Positions 6,913 to 48,836 of a stretch of DNA of 51,237 nt are shown one piece after another. This DNA is from Gemmatimonadales bacterium. Lineage in GTDB: Bacteria; Gemmatimonadota; Gemmatimonadetes; Gemmatimonadales; GWC2-71-9. The DNA lies in assembly GCA_039794085.1 (NCBI GenBank), contig JBDIWC010000031.1:1-51237 (forward strand). Direction: 5' to 3'. The notes below the pieces were generated by a model. It searched no databases, was not told the origin of the DNA, and saw nothing but the letters and a program-made list of their open reading frames with translations. The position numbers and the translations under genes were made by a program. Numbering within the stretch: position 1 is the stretch's first letter; each line of letters opens with the position of its first letter.

Positions 6913-7631
6913 TTCGCGCCGCCGCCCTTCTCCTCCTGCTCCTCCTGGTCACCGCCGTGGCCGGTCTCGGCTGTCCTGGGAAGGCACAGCCCGACGCGGG
7001 GGCTTCCCCGGGCGACGCATCGATGCGTCAGGATTCGACGCTGCGGGATTCGCTGGCACGGCGGGAGCCGGGCGTCCTTGCCTCGGTCGAGGCGGTGCCG
7101 GTGACGGGTCGCGCCGGACCGGGAGACCATCCGTTCGAGGTGGGCCGGCGTACGCCGGACGCGGTCGGTGGCCGCATCCGCCGGTTCGGCACCCGTCCGC
7201 TTCCGATACAGCTGCGGCTCCGGTCGCCCGATCTCTCGCGGTATCCGTGTACGTCGTGCCATCAGGGAATCCGACTGGTCATGGCCGACGAGCGGATACC
7301 CGACGCGCATACCGACCTTCGGGTGGTTCATCCCACCGCGACAGGCTCCACCTGCGCCACCTGCCACGCGCCGGAGAACCCCGAACTCCTTGTGCTCGGA
7401 ACCCGCGAACGCGCGACGCTGGACCATGCCTACCAGTTGTGTGCGACCTGTCACTTCAGCCAGGTGGAATCCTGGACCGGGGGCGCGCACGGGAAGCGGT
7501 TCGACGGCTGGCAGGGTCGGCGTGTGGTCATGGGATGCGCCGACTGTCACGATCCTCACGCCCCCGCCCTGGAGACTCGCATGCCCTTCCGTCCACCCCG
7601 GCTGCATCGTCCCGGGACCCGCACGCCATGA
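6909..7631 (+). CDS. Tetraheme cytochrome c, probable lipoprotein
   Basis: CTSCH, CATCH, CATCH, CADCH; signal ending AGLGC; ATGA overlaps at both ends. Confidence 0.8.
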   Translation: MIRAAALLLLLLLVTAVAGLGCPGKAQPDAGASPGDASMRQDSTLRDSLARREPGVLASVEAVPVTGRAGPGDHPFEVGRRTPDAVGGRIRRFGTRPLPIQLRLRSPDLSRYPCTSCHQGIRLVMADERIPDAHTDLRVVHPTATGSTCATCHAPENPELLVLGTRERATLDHAYQLCATCHFSQVESWTGGAHGKRFDGWQGRRVVMGCADCHDPHAPALETRMPFRPPRLHRPGTRTP

Positions 7632-27715: not shown

Positions 27716-28135
27716 ATGAAAGCTGGGCACAAGTTCTTTCTCGGGGCCACCGTTATCGTGGTGGGGGTGGGGCTCCTGATCACCGAGGGCGTCCGCTCCA
27801 CCGGGGTCTATTTCTTCACGCCCACAGAGCTGGTGGCCCGGACGACTCAGGATCCCTCCTTTCACGACGTCGGGCTCAAGGTGGGGGCCAAGGTGGTTCC
27901 CGGGACGATCCGTCGGAACGACGAGACGATGCAGATTGACTTCGAGATGAGCGACGGGGTCACCGGGGTGCCGGTGCGGTATCGCGGTCTCGTCCCCGAC
28001 ACCTTCACCGATGCCAATGACATCGAGGTCATCGTGGAAGGGAAGCTTGGCCGCGATGGCATCTTCCACGCCACCGAGGTCCTGGCCAAGTGCGGATCGC
28101 GGTATGAGTCGGAACTGGCCGAGGCGAAGGCCTGA
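27716..28135 (+). CDS. ccmE: Cytochrome c maturation heme chaperone CcmE (Cys type, CxxxY)
   Basis: YFFTPTEL, VRYRGLVPDTF, VIVEGKL, FHATEVLAKCGSRY. Confidence 0.92.
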   Translation: MKAGHKFFLGATVIVVGVGLLITEGVRSTGVYFFTPTELVARTTQDPSFHDVGLKVGAKVVPGTIRRNDETMQIDFEMSDGVTGVPVRYRGLVPDTFTDANDIEVIVEGKLGRDGIFHATEVLAKCGSRYESELAEAKA

Positions 28136-28138
28136 TCC

Positions 28139-30172
28139 ATGACTCTGCTTGGAGAGTTCGCCCTCTGGATGGCGCTGCTGGCCGGCCTCTGGGGGGCGGT
28201 GATCGGGTTTTCCGGAGCGTGGCGCCGCCGTCCCGAACTCGGGACCACGACGATCCGCTCCGCCTATGCGGTGTGTGCCGCGATGATCGTGGCCTCGATC
28301 GCCCTCTGGAAGGGGATCCTCACCCACGACTTCAACATCGAGTACGTGGCGAGCTACACCTCCCGGAATCTTCCGGACTCCTATCTCATCACGGCGTTCT
28401 GGGCGGGCCAGAAGGGGAGCCTCCTCTTCTGGGGCACGGTGCTGGGCATCTTCGGTGCGTTGGCCCAGACGCTGACCTCCCGGCGGTATCGGGACCTGAT
28501 GCCCACGGTCGCCGCCGTGACGGGGACCGTCGTGGTCTTCTTCGTGGCCACCATGCTGTTCTCGGCCAACCCGTTCGAGCGTCTCTCCTTCACACCGGCC
28601 GATGGGAACGGTCTCAATCCCCAGCTGCAGAATCCCGGGATGGTGATCCATCCCCCGATGCTCTACCTCGGGTACATCAGCATCACCATCCCGTTCGCCT
28701 TTGCCATCGCCGCGCTGCTGTCCCGGCGCCTCGACAGCGGGTGGATCATTGCGATCCGGAAGTGGACCCTCCTCTCCTGGTTCTTCCTGTCGATCGGGAT
28801 CACCCTCGGGATGTGGTGGGCGTACGTGGAACTCGGCTGGGGTGGATACTGGGCCTGGGATCCCGTGGAGAACGCGAGCCTGCTCCCGTGGCTCACCATG
28901 ACGGCCTTCCTCCACTCCGTCATGATCCAGGAAAAGCGGGGGATGCTGAAGCGATGGAACCTCGGGCTCATCATCGCCACCTTCATGCTGAGCATCTTCG
29001 GGACCTTCATCACCCGGTCGGGCGTGATCGCCAGCGTCCACAGCTTTGCCCAGTCGAACGTGGGGTACTTCTTCCTCTTCTTCCTGGTGCTGATCGGCGT
29101 CGTCTCCTTCACGCTGCTCTACACCCGCTGGCCCGATCTCGAGCCGGAGGCCAAGCTCGAGTCCGTCGCGAGCCGGGAGGCCGCCTTCCTCTTCAACAAT
29201 CTGGTGCTGGTCGGAATCGCTTTCTCGGTGCTGTGGGGGACGCTCTTTCCCATCCTCACCGAGGCGGTCCGCGGGGTGAAGATCACGGTGGGCCCCCCCT
29301 TCTTCAATCGGGTCAATGTGCCCCTCGGCATCCTGCTCCTCGCGCTCACCGGCATCGGTCCGCTGATCGCCTGGCGGAAGAGCTCCATCGCCAATCTCAA
29401 ACGCCAGTTCATCTGGCCGGTGGCGACCGGGGTCGCGACGGCGGGCACCCTCATCGCCCTCGGCATGCGGGACGGCATGGCTCTCCTGGCGCTGGGCCTC
29501 GTCGGGTTCGTGGCAGGGACGATCTGGCAGGAGTTCCATCGGGGCGTGCGGGCCCGCATGCGCATGCATGGCGAGGCGATTCCCATGGCTCTGGCCTATC
29601 TGGTGGGCCGGAATCGGCGGCGCTACGGGGGATACATCGTGCACGCCGGCATTCTTATCTACTTCGCCGCGTTCGCCGGCTCGGCCTTCAAGGTGACCCG
29701 GGAGGCGACACTGGCCCCGGGTGAAACCGCCGAGATCCGGAGCCCCTTTGGTCACGTGTACCGACTGACGCATCTGGGAGTCTCCCAGTATCAGGCGCTG
29801 AACCGGTTCGTCTCGGCTGCCACTCTGCAGGTGGAGATCGATGGCCGACCCGCCGGCGTGATCTCCTCCGAGAAGCGCCAGCACGTTGACAGCTTCGGCC
29901 GGAAGACCTTCGAGCCCTCCACCGAGGTAGGCATCCGGAGCAGCCTGCGGGAGGACCTCTATGTCGTCTACGCCGGATCGATCGGGGGCACCGAGCGCGC
30001 CAATTTTGCGATCAGTGTGAACCCCCTCATCTGGTGGCTCTGGTTCGGGGGCGGGGTGCTCGTGGTTGGGGGACTCATCACCATGTGGCCGGGCGGGGGT
30101 CGCACCGCCACCCGGACGATCCGGGGGCAGGTGCGGGTCCAGCCCCCGGTCGAGGAGGCAGTACCGGCATGA
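28139..30172 (+). CDS. ccmF: Heme lyase CcmF/NrfE
   Basis: WAGQKGSLLFW, GLNPQLQNPGMVIHPPMLYLGY, WAYVELGWGGYWAWDPVENASLLPWL, SVHSFA. Confidence 0.97.
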   Translation: MTLLGEFALWMALLAGLWGAVIGFSGAWRRRPELGTTTIRSAYAVCAAMIVASIALWKGILTHDFNIEYVASYTSRNLPDSYLITAFWAGQKGSLLFWGTVLGIFGALAQTLTSRRYRDLMPTVAAVTGTVVVFFVATMLFSANPFERLSFTPADGNGLNPQLQNPGMVIHPPMLYLGYISITIPFAFAIAALLSRRLDSGWIIAIRKWTLLSWFFLSIGITLGMWWAYVELGWGGYWAWDPVENASLLPWLTMTAFLHSVMIQEKRGMLKRWNLGLIIATFMLSIFGTFITRSGVIASVHSFAQSNVGYFFLFFLVLIGVVSFTLLYTRWPDLEPEAKLESVASREAAFLFNNLVLVGIAFSVLWGTLFPILTEAVRGVKITVGPPFFNRVNVPLGILLLALTGIGPLIAWRKSSIANLKRQFIWPVATGVATAGTLIALGMRDGMALLALGLVGFVAGTIWQEFHRGVRARMRMHGEAIPMALAYLVGRNRRRYGGYIVHAGILIYFAAFAGSAFKVTREATLAPGETAEIRSPFGHVYRLTHLGVSQYQALNRFVSAATLQVEIDGRPAGVISSEKRQHVDSFGRKTFEPSTEVGIRSSLREDLYVVYAGSIGGTERANFAISVNPLIWWLWFGGGVLVVGGLITMWPGGGRTATRTIRGQVRVQPPVEEAVPA

Positions 30173-30744
30173 TTTCACGACGGACGTTTCTGACCGTGGC
30201 TGGCGGCGCCTTGCTGTCCCGTAGCGCCTTCGCCCAGGATCCCTCCGGCGAGGCTCCGGCGGACCGGTTGCAGTTCCAAGGCATTGTGCAGCCCCGCACC
30301 GCGGTGACCGTCGGTGACAACGACCGGACCATTCAGGCCCTGGAGCGGCGTCTCAAATGCACCTGCGGGTGCAATCTGGATGTCTTCACCTGTCGTACCA
30401 CGGACTTCACCTGCACCACCTCACCGGCGATGCACCGGGAAGTCATGACGCTGTACGATGCGGGGAAGACGCCGGAGGAGATCATCGCCGTATTCGTCGA
30501 GGAGAACGGGGAATCGATCCTGATGGCCCCCCCGCCCCAGGGCTTCAACCTGGCGGGATATCTGGTTCCAGGGCTGGCCCTCGCGGCGGCGGGCACGCTC
30601 CTGGCGGCCATTCTGGTGCGTCGCCAGCGGTTGGAGCCCGCTCCAGTCGTGGGGCAGGGGGCCCGCACCGCTCCTTCGATTCCGGGGGCCTCGGCGGATG
30701 ACCTGGCCGCGCTCGATCGCGCCCTTTCCGACGTGGCGGACTGA
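30169..30744 (+). CDS. ccmH: CcmH/CycL-like maturation protein
   Basis: LERRLKCTCGC, GKTPEEIIAVFVEENGESILMAPP, C-terminal TM; follows ccmF with ATGA overlap. Confidence 0.8.
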   Translation: MISRRTFLTVAGGALLSRSAFAQDPSGEAPADRLQFQGIVQPRTAVTVGDNDRTIQALERRLKCTCGCNLDVFTCRTTDFTCTTSPAMHREVMTLYDAGKTPEEIIAVFVEENGESILMAPPPQGFNLAGYLVPGLALAAAGTLLAAILVRRQRLEPAPVVGQGARTAPSIPGASADDLAALDRALSDVAD

Positions 30745-30747
30745 TCT

Positions 30748-31311
30748 ATGCTCGCCGAGGCCCTGGCCTCTGTTCTGGTGGCCCTCGCCATCCTCTGGCT
30801 ACTCTTCGCCCCGCTCCTCGGAGCGGCATCCCCTGAACCGGCATGGGAGGAGCCCGAGGATCCCGACGAGACACCACGCGGAGTCGCGTTGATCGCACTC
30901 AAGGACCTGGAACTCGATCGCGCCACCGGGAAGCTCTCGGACGAGGACTACGAGATGCTGAAGGGTCGGTACGCCGCGGAAGCAATCACGGCGCTCCGCG
31001 AGGAGGGGGCCCGCCCGGCCGCACACAGGGGCGGAGCGGTGGATGTGGAGGCGCTGGTGGCTGGCCGGCGCCGTGCGGCGACGAATGCGGGGGGAGGGCC
31101 ACAGGGGAAGGCACTCTCATGCCCCCGCTGTGGCCCGCGCCCCGAGCCCGATGCACGGTGTTGTTCGGGTTGCGGGGCGACCCTGGTGATCGAGGGCGAT
31201 TGCGGGATGTGTGGCGCCGCAGTGGAGGCGGGCCAACGGTTCTGCGGGTCCTGTGGGCGTACTCTCGCCACGCGGGGTGAGGAACCCGAGCCGGTCGTCG
31301 CCCACGCCTGA
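30748..31311 (+). CDS. CcmI-like N-terminal domain plus zinc ribbons
   Basis: N-terminal TM; ALKDLELDRATGKLSDEDYEMLKGRY; C-terminal CPRCG, CSGCG, CGMCG, FCGSCG. Confidence 0.7.
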   Translation: MLAEALASVLVALAILWLLFAPLLGAASPEPAWEEPEDPDETPRGVALIALKDLELDRATGKLSDEDYEMLKGRYAAEAITALREEGARPAAHRGGAVDVEALVAGRRRAATNAGGGPQGKALSCPRCGPRPEPDARCCSGCGATLVIEGDCGMCGAAVEAGQRFCGSCGRTLATRGEEPEPVVAHA

Positions 31312-31513
31312 GGGACGTGCGGAGTGTGAAGTTTGAAGAGCGACGGTTCCCAAGCCGGCAGAGCCGGAACCCAACTGGGTGTCTTCAGGCTTGACGTGGG
31401 TTCATGTTCAGCTGGAGCGCCTCTCCTACTCCCCGACAGCCAGCCACAAGAAGCACAGAAGGCACAAGACCACCACCCCGAGCGCCCACGCCCACCGCGC
31501 CCCCGGAAGCAGA

Positions 31514-31610
31514 CCGCAGGTGACACAGATGACCCAGAGGAGTCCTCCCCAGACCGGTCCCGCGTCGAGTCGGTGGGGGGGGCTCGGTGTCATCTGCGTC
31601 ATCGGTGGTT
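31514..31610. repeat. Imperfect inverted repeat of 9-nt-periodic units between convergent operons
   Basis: CCGCAGGTGACACAGATGACCCAGAG versus CTCGGTGTCATCTGCGTCATCGGTGG. Confidence 0.6.
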
Positions 31611-31693
31611 CCGCCCCTTTCGCGACGGCGAGACCCCTTCCGGGCGTCGCCCAAGATATTGTTGCGATGGGGTTCACACTTGTTCGTAAGGGA

Positions 31694-32398
31694 CTACCAC
31701 GCCATGGACCCTGTCATGGGTTGGTACCTCTCCAGCCCCTCCCGCAGCATCCGGTATCCCACCAGAGCCACCCCCGCGCTTGCCAGGATAAGGGCCACTT
31801 CGACCGTCATCGCCGCCTCCGGGCGGGAAAGGAACTCGACGATGCGAGTCTGGGCCGGAAGGAAGGGGGTGACCAGGGGGTCGAGAATAAACAGGAGCCC
31901 GAGAAAGACCAGGAAGGGGATGGCACTGATCTGATCGAGCCGGAACCGCACCAGAAGGGAGGAGAGGAGGATGGAGAGGGCCGTCATGGCACTCCACGAT
32001 ACCAGGGCCACTCCCACCAATCCCGGCCGGGTGAGTCCGGGCGGGAAGAGGGCCGGGGCAGCAAGGGACCAGGCCACGACGGGGAAGAGCGCTCCGGGGA
32101 CCATGACGACGCCGGTGGCGATGCACCGGGCCAAGGCCAAAGTGGAGCGGTCCACAGGCAGGGTCAGGAGAAAGGACATGCTGCCATCGAGCTTGTCCCG
32201 CAGTTGGTTCGGAGGGAGCAACAGGACGAACGCCAGGCCCATTCCCATCAGGATGAGGACGGCGATCTCGCCGGTGGCGCGACCGGTGAGGGCCAGCAGG
32301 CCGAAGATCACGGCCAGCATGAGCACGCTGCGCCCGAGTTGGGGCCGTACTCTTCGGAGATCAAGCAGGGTCAGTCGGCGCAATGGGGACGATGTCAT
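31694..32398 (-). CDS. ABC-2 type permease
   Basis: About 6 TM helices; DGSMSFLLTLPVDRSTLALAR motif. Confidence 0.8.
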   Translation of the reverse strand: MTSSPLRRLTLLDLRRVRPQLGRSVLMLAVIFGLLALTGRATGEIAVLILMGMGLAFVLLLPPNQLRDKLDGSMSFLLTLPVDRSTLALARCIATGVVMVPGALFPVVAWSLAAPALFPPGLTRPGLVGVALVSWSAMTALSILLSSLLVRFRLDQISAIPFLVFLGLLFILDPLVTPFLPAQTRIVEFLSRPEAAMTVEVALILASAGVALVGYRMLREGLERYQPMTGSMAW

Positions 32399-33116
32399 GG
32401 TCCTCCAGCAGGGAGCGGATGGCGGCGATCCCGGTCAGGCCGGGGTACCGTGCGGCGAGAGCGTGACGTGACACATCGTGGACCAGGCCGCCTCCACGGA
32501 GGACGAGGATCCGGGTGGCGAGAAGGTCGACATCCTCGACCAGGTGGGTGGAATACACCAGGAGACGGTTTCCCTCGGCGGGGCAGACCGTCTCCAACAA
32601 CCGAACCAGATCGCCCCGGACCACTGGGTCGAGTCCCGTGGTCGGTTCGTCGAGGAGGAGAATCGGAGGACGGCACGCTTCCGCGCAGCAGAATCCGAGC
32701 TTGACCCGCATCCCCCGGGAGAGGGCGGCAAGCGGGGTGTCCCAGGGGAGGCCCATCCGGGTGCGCAGCTGATCCATCCATTGAGGGTCCCAGGTGGGAT
32801 AGAATCCCGCAAGGAACTCGCTGTGCTCCCGGACCGTCATCCACCCGAACCCGGGCATCTGGTCCGGGAGAAATCCCACACCGTGCCGGTCGGCCCGGGC
32901 GATGCTGCCCACGGGGCGACCGCTCCAGTACACCGTGCCCTGGTGCCGGGGGAGATGCCCCGCCATTCCGAGCAACATCGTGCTCTTGCCGGCCCCATTG
33001 GCGCCGAGCAACGCGACACGCTCCCCCGGGGCGAACGCGAGTGTCACGGGGCCCAGGGTGAAGGACCCTCGCGTGACGGTGAACTGATCGAGGGCGAGGA
33101 GGGGGGTCCGGGTCAT
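32361..33116 (-). CDS. ABC transporter ATP-binding protein
   Basis: [30 protein letters not shown]. Confidence 0.93.
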   Translation of the reverse strand: MTRTPLLALDQFTVTRGSFTLGPVTLAFAPGERVALLGANGAGKSTMLLGMAGHLPRHQGTVYWSGRPVGSIARADRHGVGFLPDQMPGFGWMTVREHSEFLAGFYPTWDPQWMDQLRTRMGLPWDTPLAALSRGMRVKLGFCCAEACRPPILLLDEPTTGLDPVVRGDLVRLLETVCPAEGNRLLVYSTHLVEDVDLLATRILVLRGGGLVHDVSRHALAARYPGLTGIAAIRSLLEDHDIVPIAPTDPA

Positions 33117-33781
33117 GTGCCAGCCAGGCTCCGAAGAAGACCGACGCCGAGGGAGAGAATCCAGAGCAGGAGGGCCACCGCCACCCCGGCCCGCCGGGAC
33201 GTGTTCGTCACGATGGGGATCCCCGTACTCAGGAGAAGAAACCACGCCAGATGGAAAAGCGAAAGATGGGAGACCAACGTCTGCATGAGGGGACCGTCCG
33301 GTGTGATCAGGAGATCGAGTCCCGTCGGGATCAGGAGATCCCGCGGGGAGTGCAGTCGAGCGGGCCCCAGGATGCGGGCGGTCACTGCGATCACCGCCCC
33401 CTGGAGGGCCAGGATGATCTCACCATAGAGAAGCAGGGAGAAGACGCCACGGGTCCTGACCGGATGGCCGCCGAGGGTCAGGACGCTCCAGACCACCCCG
33501 GTGGCCAGCCCGGCCCGGAGGAGAGCCAGGATCGGCGAGAGAAGGCCCAGAATCAGAAACCAGGTGCGCAGGCCGGCCACCACCGCCGGGGGACTTTCCC
33601 GGAAGGCGTACGGAATGAGAGTTCCGGTGAGGAGGGCGGCGCCGGTGAGCAGAACCGCGACCAGGAGGAGGGGCAGCCCCACGGGCCGGATGGTTCCGAT
33701 CTCCTCCAGCGTCGGGGCGCAGAGCTGGGCCTGGCGGTGCCACCAGCCTGGAGGGGGGGGAGGACGATGGACCTCGGTCAT
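33113..33781 (-). CDS. Multi-pass membrane protein, Yip1-like
   Basis: About 5 hydrophobic helices with a C-terminal LSLFHLAWFLLLSTGI pattern; GGAG RBS; 4-nt overlaps on both sides. Confidence 0.6.
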   Translation of the reverse strand: MTEVHRPPPPPGWWHRQAQLCAPTLEEIGTIRPVGLPLLLVAVLLTGAALLTGTLIPYAFRESPPAVVAGLRTWFLILGLLSPILALLRAGLATGVVWSVLTLGGHPVRTRGVFSLLLYGEIILALQGAVIAVTARILGPARLHSPRDLLIPTGLDLLITPDGPLMQTLVSHLSLFHLAWFLLLSTGIPIVTNTSRRAGVAVALLLWILSLGVGLLRSLAGT

Positions 33782-34371
33782 CGAAGGGCTCCTTCGGGTA
33801 AGGGTGACAGGGAGGGACGAGGTGAGGGATCGTCGAGGAGATGGAGCAGGGAATCGAGTCGGCCCCTTCCCGACACGCCGTAGAACAGATGGGTGACTCC
33901 ACGAGGAGTCATCACCGCGATCGCGGGGACCCCTCGCAATCGGAGGCCCCGGGCGATCCTTCCGGTCCGGTCGTGAACCAGGACGCGGGCCAACGGGGGC
34001 GGGACAAACCCGGGATCCGATCGCCGGGATGCCACCACCACGGGGACACGCGCTGGTGTCCGTCTCACCAGTTCGGTCCAGGTGCGGAGTTCCGCCTTGC
34101 ACCAGGAACACCGTTCATCCACGTAGAGCAGGAGGGTGGGCTGTCGCAGATCCTCCGCACGCCACAGGCCCCCCGAGACCAGAACTCCGGTGAGGGAATC
34201 CGCCGGTAGGGGAACCGGCAGCTCGGGAGCGCCGGGGCGGGGTGATCTCCGCGTGAGTGTCAACACCCCTCCCACGAGCACGAGACCCAGCACTCCCAGG
34301 GCCAGGATCCGGAGAAGGGTGGAGGGGGCAGAACCCCCTCCACCGCGTGAGACCAGGGCGTCAGAACGCAC
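33778..34371 (-). CDS. Membrane-anchored thioredoxin-like (TlpA/ResA-type) protein
   Basis: N-terminal TM; LLLYVDERCSWCKAEL; DRTGRIARGLRLRGVP. Confidence 0.75.
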   Translation of the reverse strand: MRSDALVSRGGGGSAPSTLLRILALGVLGLVLVGGVLTLTRRSPRPGAPELPVPLPADSLTGVLVSGGLWRAEDLRQPTLLLYVDERCSWCKAELRTWTELVRRTPARVPVVVASRRSDPGFVPPPLARVLVHDRTGRIARGLRLRGVPAIAVMTPRGVTHLFYGVSGRGRLDSLLHLLDDPSPRPSLSPLPEGALR

Positions 34372-34645
34372 CGACGCAGATTCCTCCGCAGGCGAACGCC
34401 AGCTCGGGGTTGAACAAGGCGGTCACGATCACGGCGGCGACCGACGTTCCTCCGCTCAGAAGGAGGCCCAGGCAGACGAGGCAGACAGCCTTGTCCAGAG
34501 GTCCCGCTCCCACGGTCTCGGGAGTGCGTTCCTGGGTGATGCCCGGTCTCGCCACGGCATGGACCGGGGCTGGTGGTCGGGCCAGGGGAGAGGACATCCC
34601 GAGAACGAGGGCGAGCATCCCGGCCTGGACAACAGTGTGAATCAT
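34361..34645 (-). CDS. Small secreted-type peptide precursor 2 (CxxC-x27-CxGxC hydrophobic core)
   Basis: GGGAGG RBS; hydrophobic N-terminus, Pro-rich linker, TVGAG-P, CLVC...CGGIC. Confidence 0.7.
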   Translation of the reverse strand: MIHTVVQAGMLALVLGMSSPLARPPAPVHAVARPGITQERTPETVGAGPLDKAVCLVCLGLLLSGGTSVAAVIVTALFNPELAFACGGICVGAF

Positions 34646-34697
34646 GATGAACCTCCCGGATGGAGTAAAGTTGTGGTTGGCGGACAAAAGGTGGTAA

Positions 34698-34970
34698 TCA
34701 TGTGATCGCAGCCCAGCACATTCCAACGCACCCGGCCACCGCCAGCGCCGAGCCTTCGGTAAATGCGGCCACCAGGAGGGTCGCCCAGCCACCGAGGGCG
34801 AGGATCACCCCTCCTCCGATGCAGGCCGCACATCCCAGAGCTTCCGGTCCCTGGCCCTCGACCGATTCGGCGACGGGGGCGGAGGGAGCCGGGTCCTTCG
34901 AGTCGTTCGGAAGCGTGGCCAGGTAGGCGGCCAACGCGAGTGCCATGGCAATGGCCCAGTAGTTCAACAT
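34698..34970 (-). CDS. Small secreted-type peptide precursor 1 (CxxC-x30-CxGxC hydrophobic core)
   Basis: GGAGG RBS; hydrophobic N-terminus, Pro-rich linker, VEGQG-P, CAAC...CVGMC. Confidence 0.75.
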   Translation of the reverse strand: MLNYWAIAMALALAAYLATLPNDSKDPAPSAPVAESVEGQGPEALGCAACIGGGVILALGGWATLLVAAFTEGSALAVAGCVGMCWAAIT

Positions 34971-34981
34971 GTGATCCTCCG

Positions 34982-35104
34982 TCAGTGAGGGGTGGTGGAT
35001 GTGACCGGGGCGGGCTCATGGAGAAAGTCCGTGGTCCCATCCGGGAGGGTGAGGGCGAGGATGGCCAGATACACGGCCACCGCGAGTCGCACGAGATCGA
35101 ACAT
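34982..35104 (-). CDS. 40-aa small protein (not in ORF track)
   Basis: Strong AAAGGAGGT RBS; MFDLVRLAVAVYLAILALTLPDGTTDFLHEPAPVTSTTPH; fills the gap between the peptidase and precursor 1. Confidence 0.65.
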   Translation of the reverse strand: MFDLVRLAVAVYLAILALTLPDGTTDFLHEPAPVTSTTPH

Positions 35105-35116
35105 GGGAACCTCCTT

Positions 35117-35788
35117 TCAACGGGGGAGATCCTCTCCCGGAATGGGAGAGGAGGAGATGCACCCGCGACATCCTGCGTCGGCGGGGTGCATGACAACGCC
35201 GTTCCAACGGCGGGAGAAGAGTGACCAGGGGAGGAGTTGGCGACCTCGCAGGGGATCGAGCACATCCACCGAGTCGCCGGGGGTGAGGGCCGCCACCGTG
35301 ACGAAGTGCCCGGGCCGCATCCACACGAGGAGCGGAGTGCGATACCGCGCCAGAACCTGGGGCCCCGCGGTCGGGTTCAGAGTCTTCAGGCCGACCGGTG
35401 CGTGGAGTGTGGCAGCCGTCTCGGCGAGGCGCCCAAGCCGGGTTCCCCGGGGGCCAAGACCGGTCAGGCGGGACAGGGTGTCGAGGGAGGGTGGAACCTG
35501 CCCGGACAGCCGGAGCCAGTTGGCGAGCGCCGCGGGACCACAGTCCGTCCACCCCTGCTGCCAGATCATGCCGTCCGAGGGAAGGGGGCGGGCGCCGGCC
35601 GCGAGGTCGGCGGTGGGGAGGCTGGATCGCGCCCGGGCGAGAATCCGGTCCGGGTGGAGCAGGGGGATGGCCGCTCCAAGCGCGCAGGTTCCGGCCAGGA
35701 GCGCCGCCCCCGCGAGCCGCTGCCACGGGCGAATCGGGGTGCCGAGCGGGGCGGAATGGGTGCCGTGCTGAGGATCTGAACGAGACAA
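35117..35788 (-). CDS. Stand-alone C39-family cysteine peptidase with N-terminal membrane segment
   Basis: QQGWTDCGPAAL (Gln/Cys), GHFV (His), VLDP (Asp), FSRRWNGVV; TTG start after GGAGGG. Confidence 0.85.
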   Translation of the reverse strand: MSRSDPQHGTHSAPLGTPIRPWQRLAGAALLAGTCALGAAIPLLHPDRILARARSSLPTADLAAGARPLPSDGMIWQQGWTDCGPAALANWLRLSGQVPPSLDTLSRLTGLGPRGTRLGRLAETAATLHAPVGLKTLNPTAGPQVLARYRTPLLVWMRPGHFVTVAALTPGDSVDVLDPLRGRQLLPWSLFSRRWNGVVMHPADAGCRGCISSSPIPGEDLPR

Positions 35789-35934
35789 CGTGCCCTCCGG
35801 GTGGGCGGCGCAACGCACCGCGTCAACTCGGGGGCAATGTCACGAAAGAGAGGGTGGGGAGCGGGATCCGGGAAACGCGGGGCAGGGCTCTTTCTATGCG
35901 GGCCCCCCGGCGGACCAGTCCGGGGGGCGTCCGG

Positions 35935-37677
35935 TCAGGCTTCCAAGGATTCGAGGCGGCGGAGTCCAAGGCGGAGGGGAATGAGGGTGGCGAGGGAGCA
36001 GACCGCGGTGACCAGGAGCAGAGCGATCCCGATCTCGCCGGTCAGGCCCGGGTTCTGGCCGGCCTGGCGGGCCCGGAGCCAGGAGGAGAGGGGAGCGGCC
36101 TCGATCACGATGATCGCCGCGAGCACGCTGATCGCGGTCATCATGAACATCAACCCCCCGAAACTGGTGGGAATCTGGGCCGCATTCTCGGTGTCAAATT
36201 GAGGGTAGAGCACGCCGAAGCCCACCGCCATCGCTCCGAGGGCGATCGTGAATGCGATCGTGGTGAACAGGCTGAGACCCAGCATGAACGGACTGGCACG
36301 CAGGAGGACGTTGGTCACCCCGGTGATCAGGACCGCCAGCACGAGAAGCGGGACGGTGCCTATCCAGTACTTGCTCCAGAGCATTCCCCGCATGTCCAGA
36401 GGGCTCGACCGCAGGAGCCAGAGCTGCCGGCCCTCGAGTGAGATCGACGGAAACACGAACCGGGCGGCGATGGCCGCGAGCACGAACCCCGAGAGCCCCA
36501 GGTTGAGGAAGGACACCAGCGTGATCAGGGCGAACGGCACCCGCTCGCCGGTAAACAGGGGAAGGGCCCGGATGTTGAAGATGTAGACGATGAGAAGGAC
36601 CGCCAGCAGAATGAGCTGACTCCACTGCGTGGTGTCCCGGAAGAAGAGCCGGAGGTCCTTGAGCAGGAACTCCCGCCGGGTGGGCGGGAGCCAGGCGAGG
36701 AGTCGCCCGACGATGCGGGACATGGTCCGCCCCCGCACGAAGTTATCCGCCCCCTCCTGTGCCTTGGAAAATCCGGTGAGGTAGAGCCGGCGATGCAGGG
36801 TGGCCCCCATGACCACGAAGGCCGCCGCGGTGCTCCAGAGCACCGCGAGCGGGAGGGGATCGGCCACCCGGAGCAGCCAGTTCATGATGGCCTGGCTGGC
36901 CCATTCACTGGGGAGAAACGGATTGGTCGGAGCCCGGAGAACCACCAGGAAATCCACCAGATTGCTGAATCCCTCCGGTCGCACGAGTTGCTCGGGCCGG
37001 GCGATCCGGAGGAGGAGAACGATGCCCCCCACCGCCCCGAGAGCGACGAGGCTCAGGAGATCCCGGGTGCGCCGGGCAGGAAACACGTTGACGAGCACCA
37101 GGGTGATCGCCGATCCGACCACCGTGGGGAGCACAAGAAAGGGAGCCAGGGAGGCGAAGGCCACGAAAGGGAAGAGCCACCCTCCCCCGTACACGACCCC
37201 ATAGGCGGTCAGGATGGGAAGCACGAGCAGGGCCACCATCCACGAACTGTGCACCAGCGTCTCCGCGAGCTTGGCCAGGTAGACCCGGAGCCAGTCCACC
37301 GGGGCCGCGACGAGGGTGTCGAGGTCCTTGGCCAGAAAGAAGGTGGAGAGGGCGGTCACCAGGTTGGACAGCAGGAGGACACCGCTGAACGCCAGCAGGA
37401 TCAGGCCGAGCACCTTCCCCGCCAGGAGGCTTCCGATCTCCTCCACGGTCCGGAAGTAGTGGACCACCCGCCAGGACACGCCGAAAACGGCCGCCCAGAA
37501 CACGAGGCCGATGAGACCCAGAACCACCACGCGGAGAATGCTTCGATCCTGCCGCCCCCGGGCCAGCATGCCCTGCCACTTGGGAACCAGAATGGTCCAC
37601 AGATGGGGTTGCTTCGGGGGAACCGGGATGGCGGGGGGCCCCACCGCACCGGGTAGAGGAGCGGTCACGTCAGTCAC
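35935..37677 (-). CDS. Putative ABC exporter permease
   Basis: More than 10 TM helices; SISLEGRQLWLLRSSPL; follows an ABC ATPase. Confidence 0.85.
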   Translation of the reverse strand: MTDVTAPLPGAVGPPAIPVPPKQPHLWTILVPKWQGMLARGRQDRSILRVVVLGLIGLVFWAAVFGVSWRVVHYFRTVEEIGSLLAGKVLGLILLAFSGVLLLSNLVTALSTFFLAKDLDTLVAAPVDWLRVYLAKLAETLVHSSWMVALLVLPILTAYGVVYGGGWLFPFVAFASLAPFLVLPTVVGSAITLVLVNVFPARRTRDLLSLVALGAVGGIVLLLRIARPEQLVRPEGFSNLVDFLVVLRAPTNPFLPSEWASQAIMNWLLRVADPLPLAVLWSTAAAFVVMGATLHRRLYLTGFSKAQEGADNFVRGRTMSRIVGRLLAWLPPTRREFLLKDLRLFFRDTTQWSQLILLAVLLIVYIFNIRALPLFTGERVPFALITLVSFLNLGLSGFVLAAIAARFVFPSISLEGRQLWLLRSSPLDMRGMLWSKYWIGTVPLLVLAVLITGVTNVLLRASPFMLGLSLFTTIAFTIALGAMAVGFGVLYPQFDTENAAQIPTSFGGLMFMMTAISVLAAIIVIEAAPLSSWLRARQAGQNPGLTGEIGIALLLVTAVCSLATLIPLRLGLRRLESLEA

Positions 37678-38425
37678 CCAGAATCGCTCCCAACTCCCGT
37701 TCGGTGACCCCGCCGGTGAGCTTGAGGAAGAGCTGCTCCAGCGAGCCCGTCGCATCGTGGTCCCGGCGAAGCTCCTCCATCGTCCCCTCCGCGATGATGC
37801 GCCCGTTCCGGATGATGCCGATGCGGTCGCACATCGCCTCGGCGATCTCCAGGGTGTGCGTGCTCATCAGCACGGTGCCGCCCAGGCTCGTGAAGTGACG
37901 GAAGATGTCCTTCAGCAGGCGACTGCTCTTCGGATCGAGCCCCACCATCGGTTCATCCACCACGATCACCTCGGGCTGGTGGACCAGCGCGCTGGAGATG
38001 ATGAGCTTCTGGCGCATGCCATGGCTGTAGGACTCGGTCAGCTCGTCCTTCCATCGCGTGAGTTCGAAGAGGTCGAGCAGCTCGTCGATCCGGCGCTCCA
38101 GCGCCTCCCCTTCCTGGCCGTACAGGGCCGCGACGAACCGCATGAATTCGGCCCCGGTCAGCTTGTCATACACGTAGGGCCGGTCCGGGATGAACCCCAG
38201 TCGGGCCTTGGCCGCCATCGGGAACCGTGTGATGTCGAGACCCGCCACCTCGATGCGGCCGCTGGTGGGCTGCAGGATCCCGGCGATCATGCGCATCGTC
38301 GTGGTCTTGCCGGCTCCATTCGGACCGAGAAATCCGAACAGCTGCCCCGCGGGGATGGCGAGATTGATGTGGTCCACCGCGGTGAACGACCCATACTTCT
38401 TGGTGAGGTCCGTGATCTGAATCAT
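37670..38425 (-). CDS. ABC transporter ATP-binding protein
   Basis: GPNGAGKTT, YSHGMRQK, VVDEPMVGLDP, STH. Confidence 0.95.
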   Translation of the reverse strand: MIQITDLTKKYGSFTAVDHINLAIPAGQLFGFLGPNGAGKTTTMRMIAGILQPTSGRIEVAGLDITRFPMAAKARLGFIPDRPYVYDKLTGAEFMRFVAALYGQEGEALERRIDELLDLFELTRWKDELTESYSHGMRQKLIISSALVHQPEVIVVDEPMVGLDPKSSRLLKDIFRHFTSLGGTVLMSTHTLEIAEAMCDRIGIIRNGRIIAEGTMEELRRDHDATGSLEQLFLKLTGGVTERELGAILGD

Positions 38426-47539: not shown

Positions 47540-48836
47540 GGGCCTGTGACATAATAACTGATTGCTCTCGGAATCGAGGGCGTGTAGATTGGTGGTATGG
47601 ACGTGGCCACGGTTCGCCGGAAGTACCGCGCGCTCTCGGGCACGCTGACCGAACGGTCGCGGCGCTTGTGGGCGGCGACGGAAGCGCGGGAACTCGGCCA
47701 CGGTGGGATCGCGGTGGTCGAACGCGCGACGGGGATCTCCCGCTCGACGATTACGCGGGGCCTCCGCGAGATCGCGTCGGGGACCAGCGACGCCCTGCCT
47801 CCCGCGCGGGCGCGCCGCCCCGGCGCGGGGCGGAAGCAGGTGATCGAGAAGGACCCGACGCTCCTCGACCATCTCGATGCCTTGATCGCTCCCGTGACGC
47901 GGGGGGACCCGGAAACGCCGCTGCGGTGGACGGCGAAGAGCGTCCGCCACCTGGAAGCAGAACTCCAGGCGCGCGGGCACGCGGTGAGCTACCGGACGAT
48001 CGCCCGGGTCCTCACCGAGGCGGGATTCAGCTTGCAGGCCAATCGCAAGACACGCGAAGGCGAGCAGCACGTCGACCGGGACGCGCAGTTCCGCTACATC
48101 GATCGGCTGGTGCGGGCCCAGCTGCGCCGGGGAGCGCCCGCCGTCTCGGTGGATACGAAGAAGAAGGAACTGGTCGGGAACTTCAAGAATCCCGGGCGGG
48201 AATGGAGACCGCAGGGAGAGCCCGAGCACGTCCGGGTCCACGACTTCCTCGTGCCGGATCAAGGCAAGGCGATCCCCTACGGGGTCTACGACCTGAGCCG
48301 CGATGAAGGGTGGGTCAGTGTGGGCATCGATCATGACACCGCCAGCTTCGCCGTGAATACGCTGCGGCAGTGGTGGAAGGTCATGGGCCGATCCGCCTAT
48401 CCCCGGACCGACTCGCTTCTGGTCACCGCCGATGCCGGGGGAAGCAATGGGTCCCGCGTGCACCTCTGGAAATGGGAGTTGCAGCGGTTCGCGAATCGCA
48501 CAGGCCTGTCGATTACGGTCTGCCACTTCCCGCCGGGAACCAGCAAGTGGAACAAGATCGAGCACCGGCTCTTCTCGTATATCGCCATGAACTGGCGCGG
48601 CCAGCCGCTCGTGAACCTCGCCACCATTGTGAGCCTCATCGGATCCACCCAGACTTCGTCCGGCCTCCGGATCCGCTCCGAGATCGATCACGGGTCGTAT
48701 CCGCTCGGGGTCAAGGTCAGCGACGAGCAGATGGCCAGGGTCCGGCTGGAACCCCACCGATTCCATGGGGATTGGAACTACACGATCCGCCCGGGACGTC
48801 CCCGTCGATAAGGGTCAGTTATTATGTCACATGCCC
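47540..48836 (+). mobile_element. ISAzo13-family insertion sequence (1297 bp)
   Basis: 22-bp terminal inverted repeats GGGC(C/A)TGTGACATAATAACTGA with 1 mismatch; TAA direct repeats at 47537-47539 and 48837-48839. Confidence 0.92.
47597..48811 (+). CDS. ISAzo13-family DDE transposase
   Basis: ERSRRLWAATEA, SVDTKKKELVGNFKN, TADAGGSNG, HFPPGTSKWNKIEHRLFS, HGDWNYTI. Confidence 0.95.
   Translation: MDVATVRRKYRALSGTLTERSRRLWAATEARELGHGGIAVVERATGISRSTITRGLREIASGTSDALPPARARRPGAGRKQVIEKDPTLLDHLDALIAPVTRGDPETPLRWTAKSVRHLEAELQARGHAVSYRTIARVLTEAGFSLQANRKTREGEQHVDRDAQFRYIDRLVRAQLRRGAPAVSVDTKKKELVGNFKNPGREWRPQGEPEHVRVHDFLVPDQGKAIPYGVYDLSRDEGWVSVGIDHDTASFAVNTLRQWWKVMGRSAYPRTDSLLVTADAGGSNGSRVHLWKWELQRFANRTGLSITVCHFPPGTSKWNKIEHRLFSYIAMNWRGQPLVNLATIVSLIGSTQTSSGLRIRSEIDHGSYPLGVKVSDEQMARVRLEPHRFHGDWNYTIRPGRPRR

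Follow-up and report, generated by a model that had tools for sequence, protein, structure and literature searches.

We analyzed a 51,237-nucleotide contig from a Gemmatimonadales bacterium (JBDIWC010000031.1 of assembly GCA_039794085.1), referred to below, at its full length, as the window, and focused on a cassette at positions 31,694 to 35,788 that carries a C39 peptidase, two small precursor peptides, a thiol-disulfide oxidoreductase, a Yip1-like membrane protein and an ABC transporter. A preliminary description of this DNA had outlined a compact, same-strand cluster, and all eight of its open reading frames (ORFs) are present at their given places on the minus strand:

35117..35788 (-): C39 peptidase with an N-terminal membrane anchor (residues ~25-45) and catalytic residues Q77, C83, H161 and D178 (PF03412, E 7e-9, above cut-off)
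34982..35104 (-): 40-aa ORF, a duplicate of precursor A truncated to the leader (by alignment with the N-terminus of precursor A)
34698..34970 (-): precursor A, 90 aa, with a signal-like segment (1-20), a pro-segment to VEGQ40 and a core CxxC-x30-CxxxC
34701..34850 (-): core A as predicted after cleavage, a helical hairpin of 50 aa (residues 41-90) with net charge -2 (cut site from the family motif)
34361..34645 (-): precursor B, 94 aa, with a signal-like segment (1-17), a pro-segment to TVGA47, a core CxxC-x27-CxxxC and the B-type P-E motif
34364..34504 (-): core B as predicted after cleavage, 47 aa (residues 48-94) with net charge -1 (cut site from the family motif)
33778..34371 (-): membrane-anchored thiol-disulfide oxidoreductase of the TlpA/ResA fold, with C88-S-W-C91 and V148-P149 (family profile against structures)
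33113..33781 (-): Yip1/YknW-like multi-pass membrane protein (NF052650, YknW, E 9e-11, below cut-off)
32361..33116 (-): ABC ATPase (PF00005; best NCBIfam match PmtA, far below cut-off)
31694..32398 (-): ABC-2 type permease (PF13346, E 1e-5, at cut-off; seven hydrophobic segments by hydropathy)

The last five cassette genes are joined by stop-to-start overlaps, a GGAGG site precedes each of the three small ORFs, and the C39 gene has an alternative GTG start at 35818. The conserved Gemmatimonadota operon comprises seven genes. The 40-aa ORF, previously counted as a component of the system, resembles the N-terminus of precursor A in both protein and DNA, ribosome-binding site included; it encodes the signal and part of the pro-segment, with neither cleavage motif nor core, and was seen in just one other genome (two overlapping loci, 97 searched). 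It is probably a remnant of a precursor A duplication and was rejected as an immunity protein or third peptide. A loose six-frame scan of the window's genome (G000) for CxxC-x20..36-CxxxC returned eight matches, among which only precursors A and B are hydrophobic (fraction 0.72-0.80 vs 0.28-0.51), and no additional precursor or C39 copies were found in this genome.

The cassette recurs across the phylum. Of 60 relatives searched with precursor A, 3 had true homologs, with identical gene order in all three, and a 12-row precursor alignment found matches in 16 of 401 genomes of the phylum. Thirteen further loci all carried the C39, precursor, thioredoxin-like (Trx) oxidoreductase, Yip1-like and ABC genes in order, 12 of them with a permease match. 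To avoid selecting on the precursors, we searched GTDB genomes using only the C39 alignment, which yielded 52 loci. The 45 strongest, of which 15 are stretches that fed the profiles and others may be the source of precursor-profile cluster representatives, were all titled Gemmatimonadota and all carried precursors; the oxidoreductase, Yip1-like and ABC genes stood in the same order in 43 (the other two stop at a contig edge), and 41 had a permease match. The co-occurrence that the preliminary description had proposed to look for by profile and synteny search is thus seen well beyond the window. The seven weakest of the 52 loci had no precursor profile match, and the precursor alignment found none in five genomes with a weak C39. 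Of 29 metagenome loci, the 16 strongest included 14 with precursors together with cassette genes, and a profile search of 1.84 billion representatives returned 145 precursor clusters at 50% identity. Of 401 genomes, 19 had strong Yip1 orthologs (E 1e-24 or better); two of the 16 weak matches were inspected, and both are stand-alone genes.

The idea of a stand-alone, membrane-anchored C39 peptidase holds throughout the family. An N-terminal transmembrane (TM) segment is present in 45 of 45 loci, with greater positive charge before it in 42, and the Q, C, H and D motifs are all kept in 44, the catalytic residues being invariant in 13 homologs. The ORF, of ~200-220 aa, ends ahead of the precursors in mapped loci and is not fused to an exporter. 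Given this N-in anchor, the catalytic domain is predicted to face the periplasm. By sequence and by fold, the enzyme is nearest to the peptidase domains of bacteriocin exporters: its model matches those of LahT and PCAT1 (E 1e-8, root-mean-square deviation (rmsd) 2.1, papain-like fold), the family profile reaches PCAT1 at E 2e-17, and all 13 members match TIGR03796 (best 3e-15), compared with 5 of 13 for FapD (7e-7) and 8 of 13 for FilB (2e-4). These FapD and FilB values, as well as the best against PA2778-type models (0.05), lie far below cut-off. The window copy scores 10.8 bits against NF058616, for which the cut-off is 330; the nearest titled locus is L051, whose C39 is 93% identical.

The 45 loci hold 155 candidate precursors, two to six per locus; five of these, being false or broken, do not enter the later counts. 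Type A mostly has a spacer of 30 and a G-S motif, and type B a spacer of mostly 28 and a P-E motif. The two are paralogous (hhalign 98%, E 1e-13), and A and B are neighbors in that order in 39 of 45 loci, as counted with class profiles built from many of these same loci; a contig edge, apparent frameshifts and an insertion account for some of the remaining six loci. Since many loci carry one to four variable accessory precursors besides this pair, and arrays reach six, the family is better described as a fixed pair plus variable accessories: the two-peptide system first proposed stands as to its invariant A and B, but not as a limit on the number of peptides. Several arrays are damaged or unusual. 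A 2.4-kb, mobile-element-like insertion interrupts precursor A at L048:8540-11362, precursor A of L049 is apparently frameshifted, and L115 and L122 look like deleted cassettes. Within the L049 array (7036-7606) lie two tandem, signal-bearing, aromatic peptides of 73-75 aa, with five Cys and no Gly site.

The precursor N-termini, taken in the preliminary description as signals for Sec export, bear this out across the family, with a net positive N-region in 257 of 271 precursors and a hydrophobic h-region in 248. Twin-arginine (Tat) motifs occur in none of the 271 and a lipobox in three, and the Tat and lipoprotein export routes were rejected on these counts. The leader, which begins with this Sec-type signal, is 40-47 aa long. 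Ahead of the first Cys, 271 of 279 distinct precursors carry G-x-[GQ]; a hydrophobic P4 (V, I or L) is found in 238, and the strict pattern [VIL]xGx[GQ] likewise in 238 of 279, against a mean of 27 and a maximum of 39 in shuffles (n=200). The rule reported for C39 sites is a hydrophobic residue at -4 and GG, GA or GS (PMC10885120). Among accessory precursors with Gln at P1', 42 of 53 read V/I-x-G-G|Q, with P1 Gly. This canonical double-glycine site points to the likely register, in which the scissile bond would be V-x-G-x|G, giving VEGQ|GP in A and TVGA|GP in B, and this is more likely than G|P. The predicted bond therefore lies one residue before the Gly-Pro junction at which cleavage had been placed; GxGP appears in only 49 of 279 precursors, and G|P cleavage was rejected as a family rule. 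Similarly, the Gly motif before Pro is present in both window precursors, but Pro follows in only 49 of 271 across the family. Because the residue at P1 varies unusually widely (R 53, G 53, A 46, Q 30, S 27, T 22), the cut site stays a prediction.

The window cores read as first described, CAAC-x30-CVGMC in A and CLVC-x27-CGGIC in B. The pattern CxxC-x26..32-CxxxC, which is partly built into the query, recurs in 144 of 145 clusters; the CxGxC ending holds in the window but not in the family, where the middle Gly is found in 38 of 144. The AlphaFold model of core A (helices 42-59, 62-69 and 74-89; predicted local distance difference test score 82-85) agrees with the helical hairpin that had been envisaged. 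A fold search with the core returned generic helix pairs (best Z 5.7, rmsd 2.6, 52 aligned), and the best ESM Atlas match (0.79) is a lead only. Among 148 distinct locus precursors, a count that sets aside two mis-parsed rows, 25 keep one Cys per side, 17-21 residues apart, which fits a staple between helices and not a four-Cys site; for the four-Cys cores we infer nested pairing.

With ratios of nonsynonymous to synonymous substitution (dN/dS) of 0.26 for core A and 0.23 for core B relative to the congeneric genome G001, the precursors are constrained genes. The synonymous divergence (dS) of precursor A between G000 and G001 is 0.55, compared with 0.10-0.19 in larger neighboring genes (binomial P 7e-7), and this roughly threefold excess at silent sites suggests that the precursor A allele was exchanged. 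The flanks differ between G002 and G000, both of one genus. From the tree of C39 and ABC proteins we make no claim of transfer between lineages, since its branches are long and its deep support is weak.

The family profile of the oxidoreductase matches the structures of YkuV, StoA, ResA and DsbF, and AhpC-TSA is matched by 8 of 12 members, with no match in the window copy. Its Cys residues are invariant, and a TM segment is present in 37 of 37 parsed members. The dipeptide is x-H or x-Y in 29 of 37 (S-W in the window copy), and in 37 of 39 members Val stands before the residue presumed to be cis-Pro. Such dipeptides together with Val before cis-Pro follow an oxidase-like rule, and proteins of the TlpA/ResA fold class are often reducing. 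In the Yip1-like family, PF04893 gave a weak match in 1 of 12 members. YknW modulates the transporter that protects against SDP (PMC4887032), and Yip1 and ABC genes are common in circular-bacteriocin clusters (PMC8659200).

We lean slightly toward reading the operon as the source of a bacteriocin-like system of two peptide components. Precursors A and B would cross the inner membrane by Sec and be cut after V-x-G-x by the stand-alone, probably periplasm-facing C39, and the dedicated oxidoreductase would staple their cores into two-disulfide helical hairpins. A and B would then probably act jointly on membranes and damage competitors, while the Yip1-like protein and the ABC-2 transporter would clear the peptides from the producer's own membrane; the cores could cross the outer membrane by vesicles, by contact or through a generic channel encoded elsewhere, and the accessory precursors would be variable extra payloads sharing the same leader. 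The analogies that incline us this way, with a little better than even confidence, are the exporter-type C39, the double-glycine site, and the pairing of Yip1 and ABC proteins as in SDP and circular-bacteriocin clusters. Patchy occurrence and expanding, variable arrays also suggest conflict-like evolution, as do the differing flanks of G002 and G000, the diverged precursor A allele and the insertion at L048.

Several observations weigh against this bacteriocin-like reading. Arg, Gln, Thr or Ser often occupies P1, unusually for a C39 site, and a -7/-12 helix is absent; the real register may therefore differ. The cores are near neutral (median net charge 0, 194 of 271 within +/-1) and very hydrophobic (grand average of hydropathy 1.31), unlike cationic class II peptides. 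Among the flanking ORF clusters, annotated through their representatives, neither an outer-membrane channel or adaptor nor a conserved small immunity gene recurs. About 24 Longimicrobiales-group loci share one fixed chromosomal site, and the A and B spacings, 30 and 28, stay constant throughout the phylum; both would also suit a structural role. The tested precedent for a periplasmic C39, FapD, is active in that compartment and required for secretion of amyloid fibers (PMC5557850).

These points lend some weight to a picture, unlikely in our estimate, in which A and B are structural subunits of a pilin-like filament or of a hetero-oligomer in the producer's membrane, with C39 as a prepilin-type maturase, the accessories as minor subunits and the Yip1-like and ABC proteins as an assembly platform. 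The precedents for stand-alone C39 peptidases outside the cytoplasm are linked to fibers (FapD, PMC5557850; FilB, by its NCBIfam name), and neutral hydrophobic hairpins, fixed spacing, purifying selection and a fixed site in one lineage would all suit subunits. Yet the cassette's C39 is nearer to bacteriocin exporters than to FapD or FilB, no secretin, usher or FapF-like gene recurs among the flanking ORF clusters, the cores have no amyloid repeats, the distribution is patchy, and Yip1 with ABC-2 is a known peptide-protection pairing. The absence of an exit route past the periplasm could instead mean that the peptides are self-directed membrane modulators or signals, serving envelope stress, kin recognition or a programmed lysis like SDP cannibalism; polymorphic accessories could encode identity, and some loci have regulators nearby (BTAD/AAA at L053 and L059, a histidine kinase at L017). 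We regard this as improbable, as no receptor or regulator is conserved across loci and hairpins of 50 aa are long for pheromones. That the four Cys bind metal or buffer periplasmic thiols, kept reduced by the TlpA-fold protein, seems very improbable: CxxC and CxxxC could ligate metal, TlpA/ResA-fold proteins are often reductants, and cytochrome c maturation (ccm) genes border the operon in G000 and G001, but the two-Cys precursors and the oxidase-like dipeptides of the oxidoreductase speak against it, and the ccm neighborhood is missing from other loci.

In the window, genes for ccmE, ccmF, a ccmH-like protein (by eye) and a double zinc-ribbon protein (27716-31311, +) converge on the cassette, with multiheme-like genes upstream of them. 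This adjacency occurs only in G000 and G001, and a functional link between cassette and ccm operon was rejected as local synteny. A short repeat-like element at 31385-31677 separates the permease from the ccm genes; its translation resembles text found on contigs C41, C71 and C74, which suggests a dispersed repeat. Upstream of the cassette on the same strand, a second ABC pair (PF16949 permease and ATPase, 35935-38425, -) evolves at a housekeeping-level dN/dS of 0.06-0.07; it does not accompany the cassette in other loci. A 404-aa ORF at 47597-48811 (+) is transposase-like by eye. Elsewhere, an MprF-like lysyl-phosphatidylglycerol synthase stands just upstream of the cassette in three related loci (L074:5387-6550, L090 and L091:218-1717; PF09924 in two scanned), a large divergent BTAD/AAA-type regulator lies upstream at L053:4116-6398, L059:267-3374, L072:3041-6166 and L115:368-3790 (Pfam checked for L053 and L059), and a histidine kinase sits beside the cassette at L017.

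Related cassettes exist outside Gemmatimonadota, in two genomes of the Acidobacteriota group. L120:353-5662 (also L119 and L096) encodes a Trx protein, a TM-anchored C39, two signal-bearing precursors, a permease, an ABC protein and a 225-aa membrane protein without a family match; its C39 is 99% identical to that of the Acidobacteriota-titled L096. Its precursors have x-x-G-x-G sites and a Cys pattern unlike that of the Gemmatimonadota precursors, to whose family they gave no significant alignment. In G526 (L134:5030-8845), one of 301 genomes searched in the Acidobacteriota-group phylum, a TM-anchored C39 comes before a precursor with a signal, a canonical L-G-G site and a two-Cys hydrophobic core, after which come a permease and an ABC protein; the precursor profile gives this precursor 19.1 bits, compared with at most 12.4 in 500 shuffles, and no Trx or Yip1 gene was found near this C39 locus. 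Given these cassettes, the maturation route is not unique to Gemmatimonadota, and the four-Cys A/B pair was seen only there. At L128:834-1874, a stand-alone C39 precedes a 196-aa protein with a signal, a canonical double-Gly-type leader and a very Cys-rich core, without a Pfam match. At L123:5629-9812 and L125:5656-7187, a C39 with a long N-terminal region immediately precedes a protein, RHS-like by eye, that carries a signal and a double-Gly-like leader at its own N-terminus. A bolder proposal, which we hold to be doubtful, is that Sec export, a periplasm-facing stand-alone C39 and a shortened double-glycine site form a separate maturation route that would build the stapled A/B hairpins into a new kind of hetero-oligomeric membrane pore or surface filament with exchangeable accessories. 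The same route would then operate in Acidobacteriota-group genomes too, and on unrelated substrates of Cys-rich and RHS type.

The precursors appear to belong to no named family, as first suspected. The window copies and 38 members had only scattered weak matches in Pfam and NCBIfam, PDB sequences gave no match under E 0.19, and the few source names for homologs read 'hypothetical protein'. No literature description of the cassette was found in a search that mostly covered papers outside subscription. A study of marine Gemmatimonadota mentions Nif11-type bacteriocins, microcins and lasso peptides and, in the portion available, never C39 (PMC11316326); its antiSMASH supplements could list such loci as generic bacteriocin clusters. 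The available part of PMC8692599 holds nothing on the cassette. A family of at least 145 sequence clusters thus has no curated model, in a little-cultured phylum, and its cassette is compact enough to be expressed whole. Should the proposed route be correct, double-glycine processing would no longer be tied to ABC export and would take place in the periplasm, and the cassette would become a candidate trait for antagonism among Gemmatimonadota living in soil, in sediment or with hosts. Stand-alone double-Gly peptidases were named a wanted tool in a 2023 review (PMC10885120), and the cassette C39 seems to accept widely differing cores and a broad choice of residues at P1.

How does the cassette compare with known systems? 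By class features that are partly general knowledge, it resembles class IIb bacteriocins and class II microcins in its two adjacent small precursors, Gly/Ala-rich hydrophobic cores and exporter-type C39. It also shares the site with a hydrophobic -4 and Gly -2 (PMC10885120), and an accessory thiol oxidoreductase. Adjacent, co-inherited precursor genes, as in class IIb, are found here, but its precursors have a Sec-type signal before a short pro-segment and a relaxed P1 in place of a short double-Gly leader removed by a peptidase-containing ATP-binding cassette transporter (PCAT), its C39 is anchored N-in and not fused to a transporter, and its cores are neutral with four invariant Cys, not cationic and amphipathic. 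Neither the PCAT nor the membrane-fusion protein of class II microcins is among the eight cluster genes, and adaptor, TolC and small immunity gene are likewise missing. Glycocins of the sublancin type combine a helix-loop-helix with two disulfides, C39 and a thiol-disulfide oxidoreductase; the cassette differs in having a Sec signal and no PCAT, with no precursor family match and no glycosyltransferase found in the cluster.

Like the cassette precursors, SdpC of Bacillus carries a signal plus a propeptide. The SDP/YknWXYZ system has a small disulfide peptide toxin and a Yip1-family protein within a protective ABC system (PMC4887032), as is proposed for the cassette, but the cassette has a dedicated C39, two paralogous four-Cys peptides, an ABC-2 and not a MacB-type transporter, and a diderm host; Pfam and NCBIfam gave no SdpA, SdpB, SdpI or SdpC-family match for the cluster proteins or 38 precursors. 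Circular bacteriocins have similarly hydrophobic helical cores, Yip1 and ABC genes and sometimes several precursor copies (PMC8659200). The cassette departs from them in its C39 and four-Cys cores, no SpoIIM/DUF95 match was found among cluster proteins, and C-terminal tails that vary from 2 to 13 residues argue against head-to-tail cyclization. The Pseudomonas Fap system (FapD, PMC5557850), Acinetobacter FilB (by its NCBIfam name) and PA2778/PA2779 have a stand-alone C39 that works on Sec-exported substrates beyond the cytoplasm, as is predicted for the cassette enzyme; unlike them, the cassette has unrelated substrates and no outer-membrane channel, and adds the Trx, Yip1-like and ABC-2 proteins. 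Within the literature searched the cassette is undescribed; it is real and conserved, and it combines parts of known systems.

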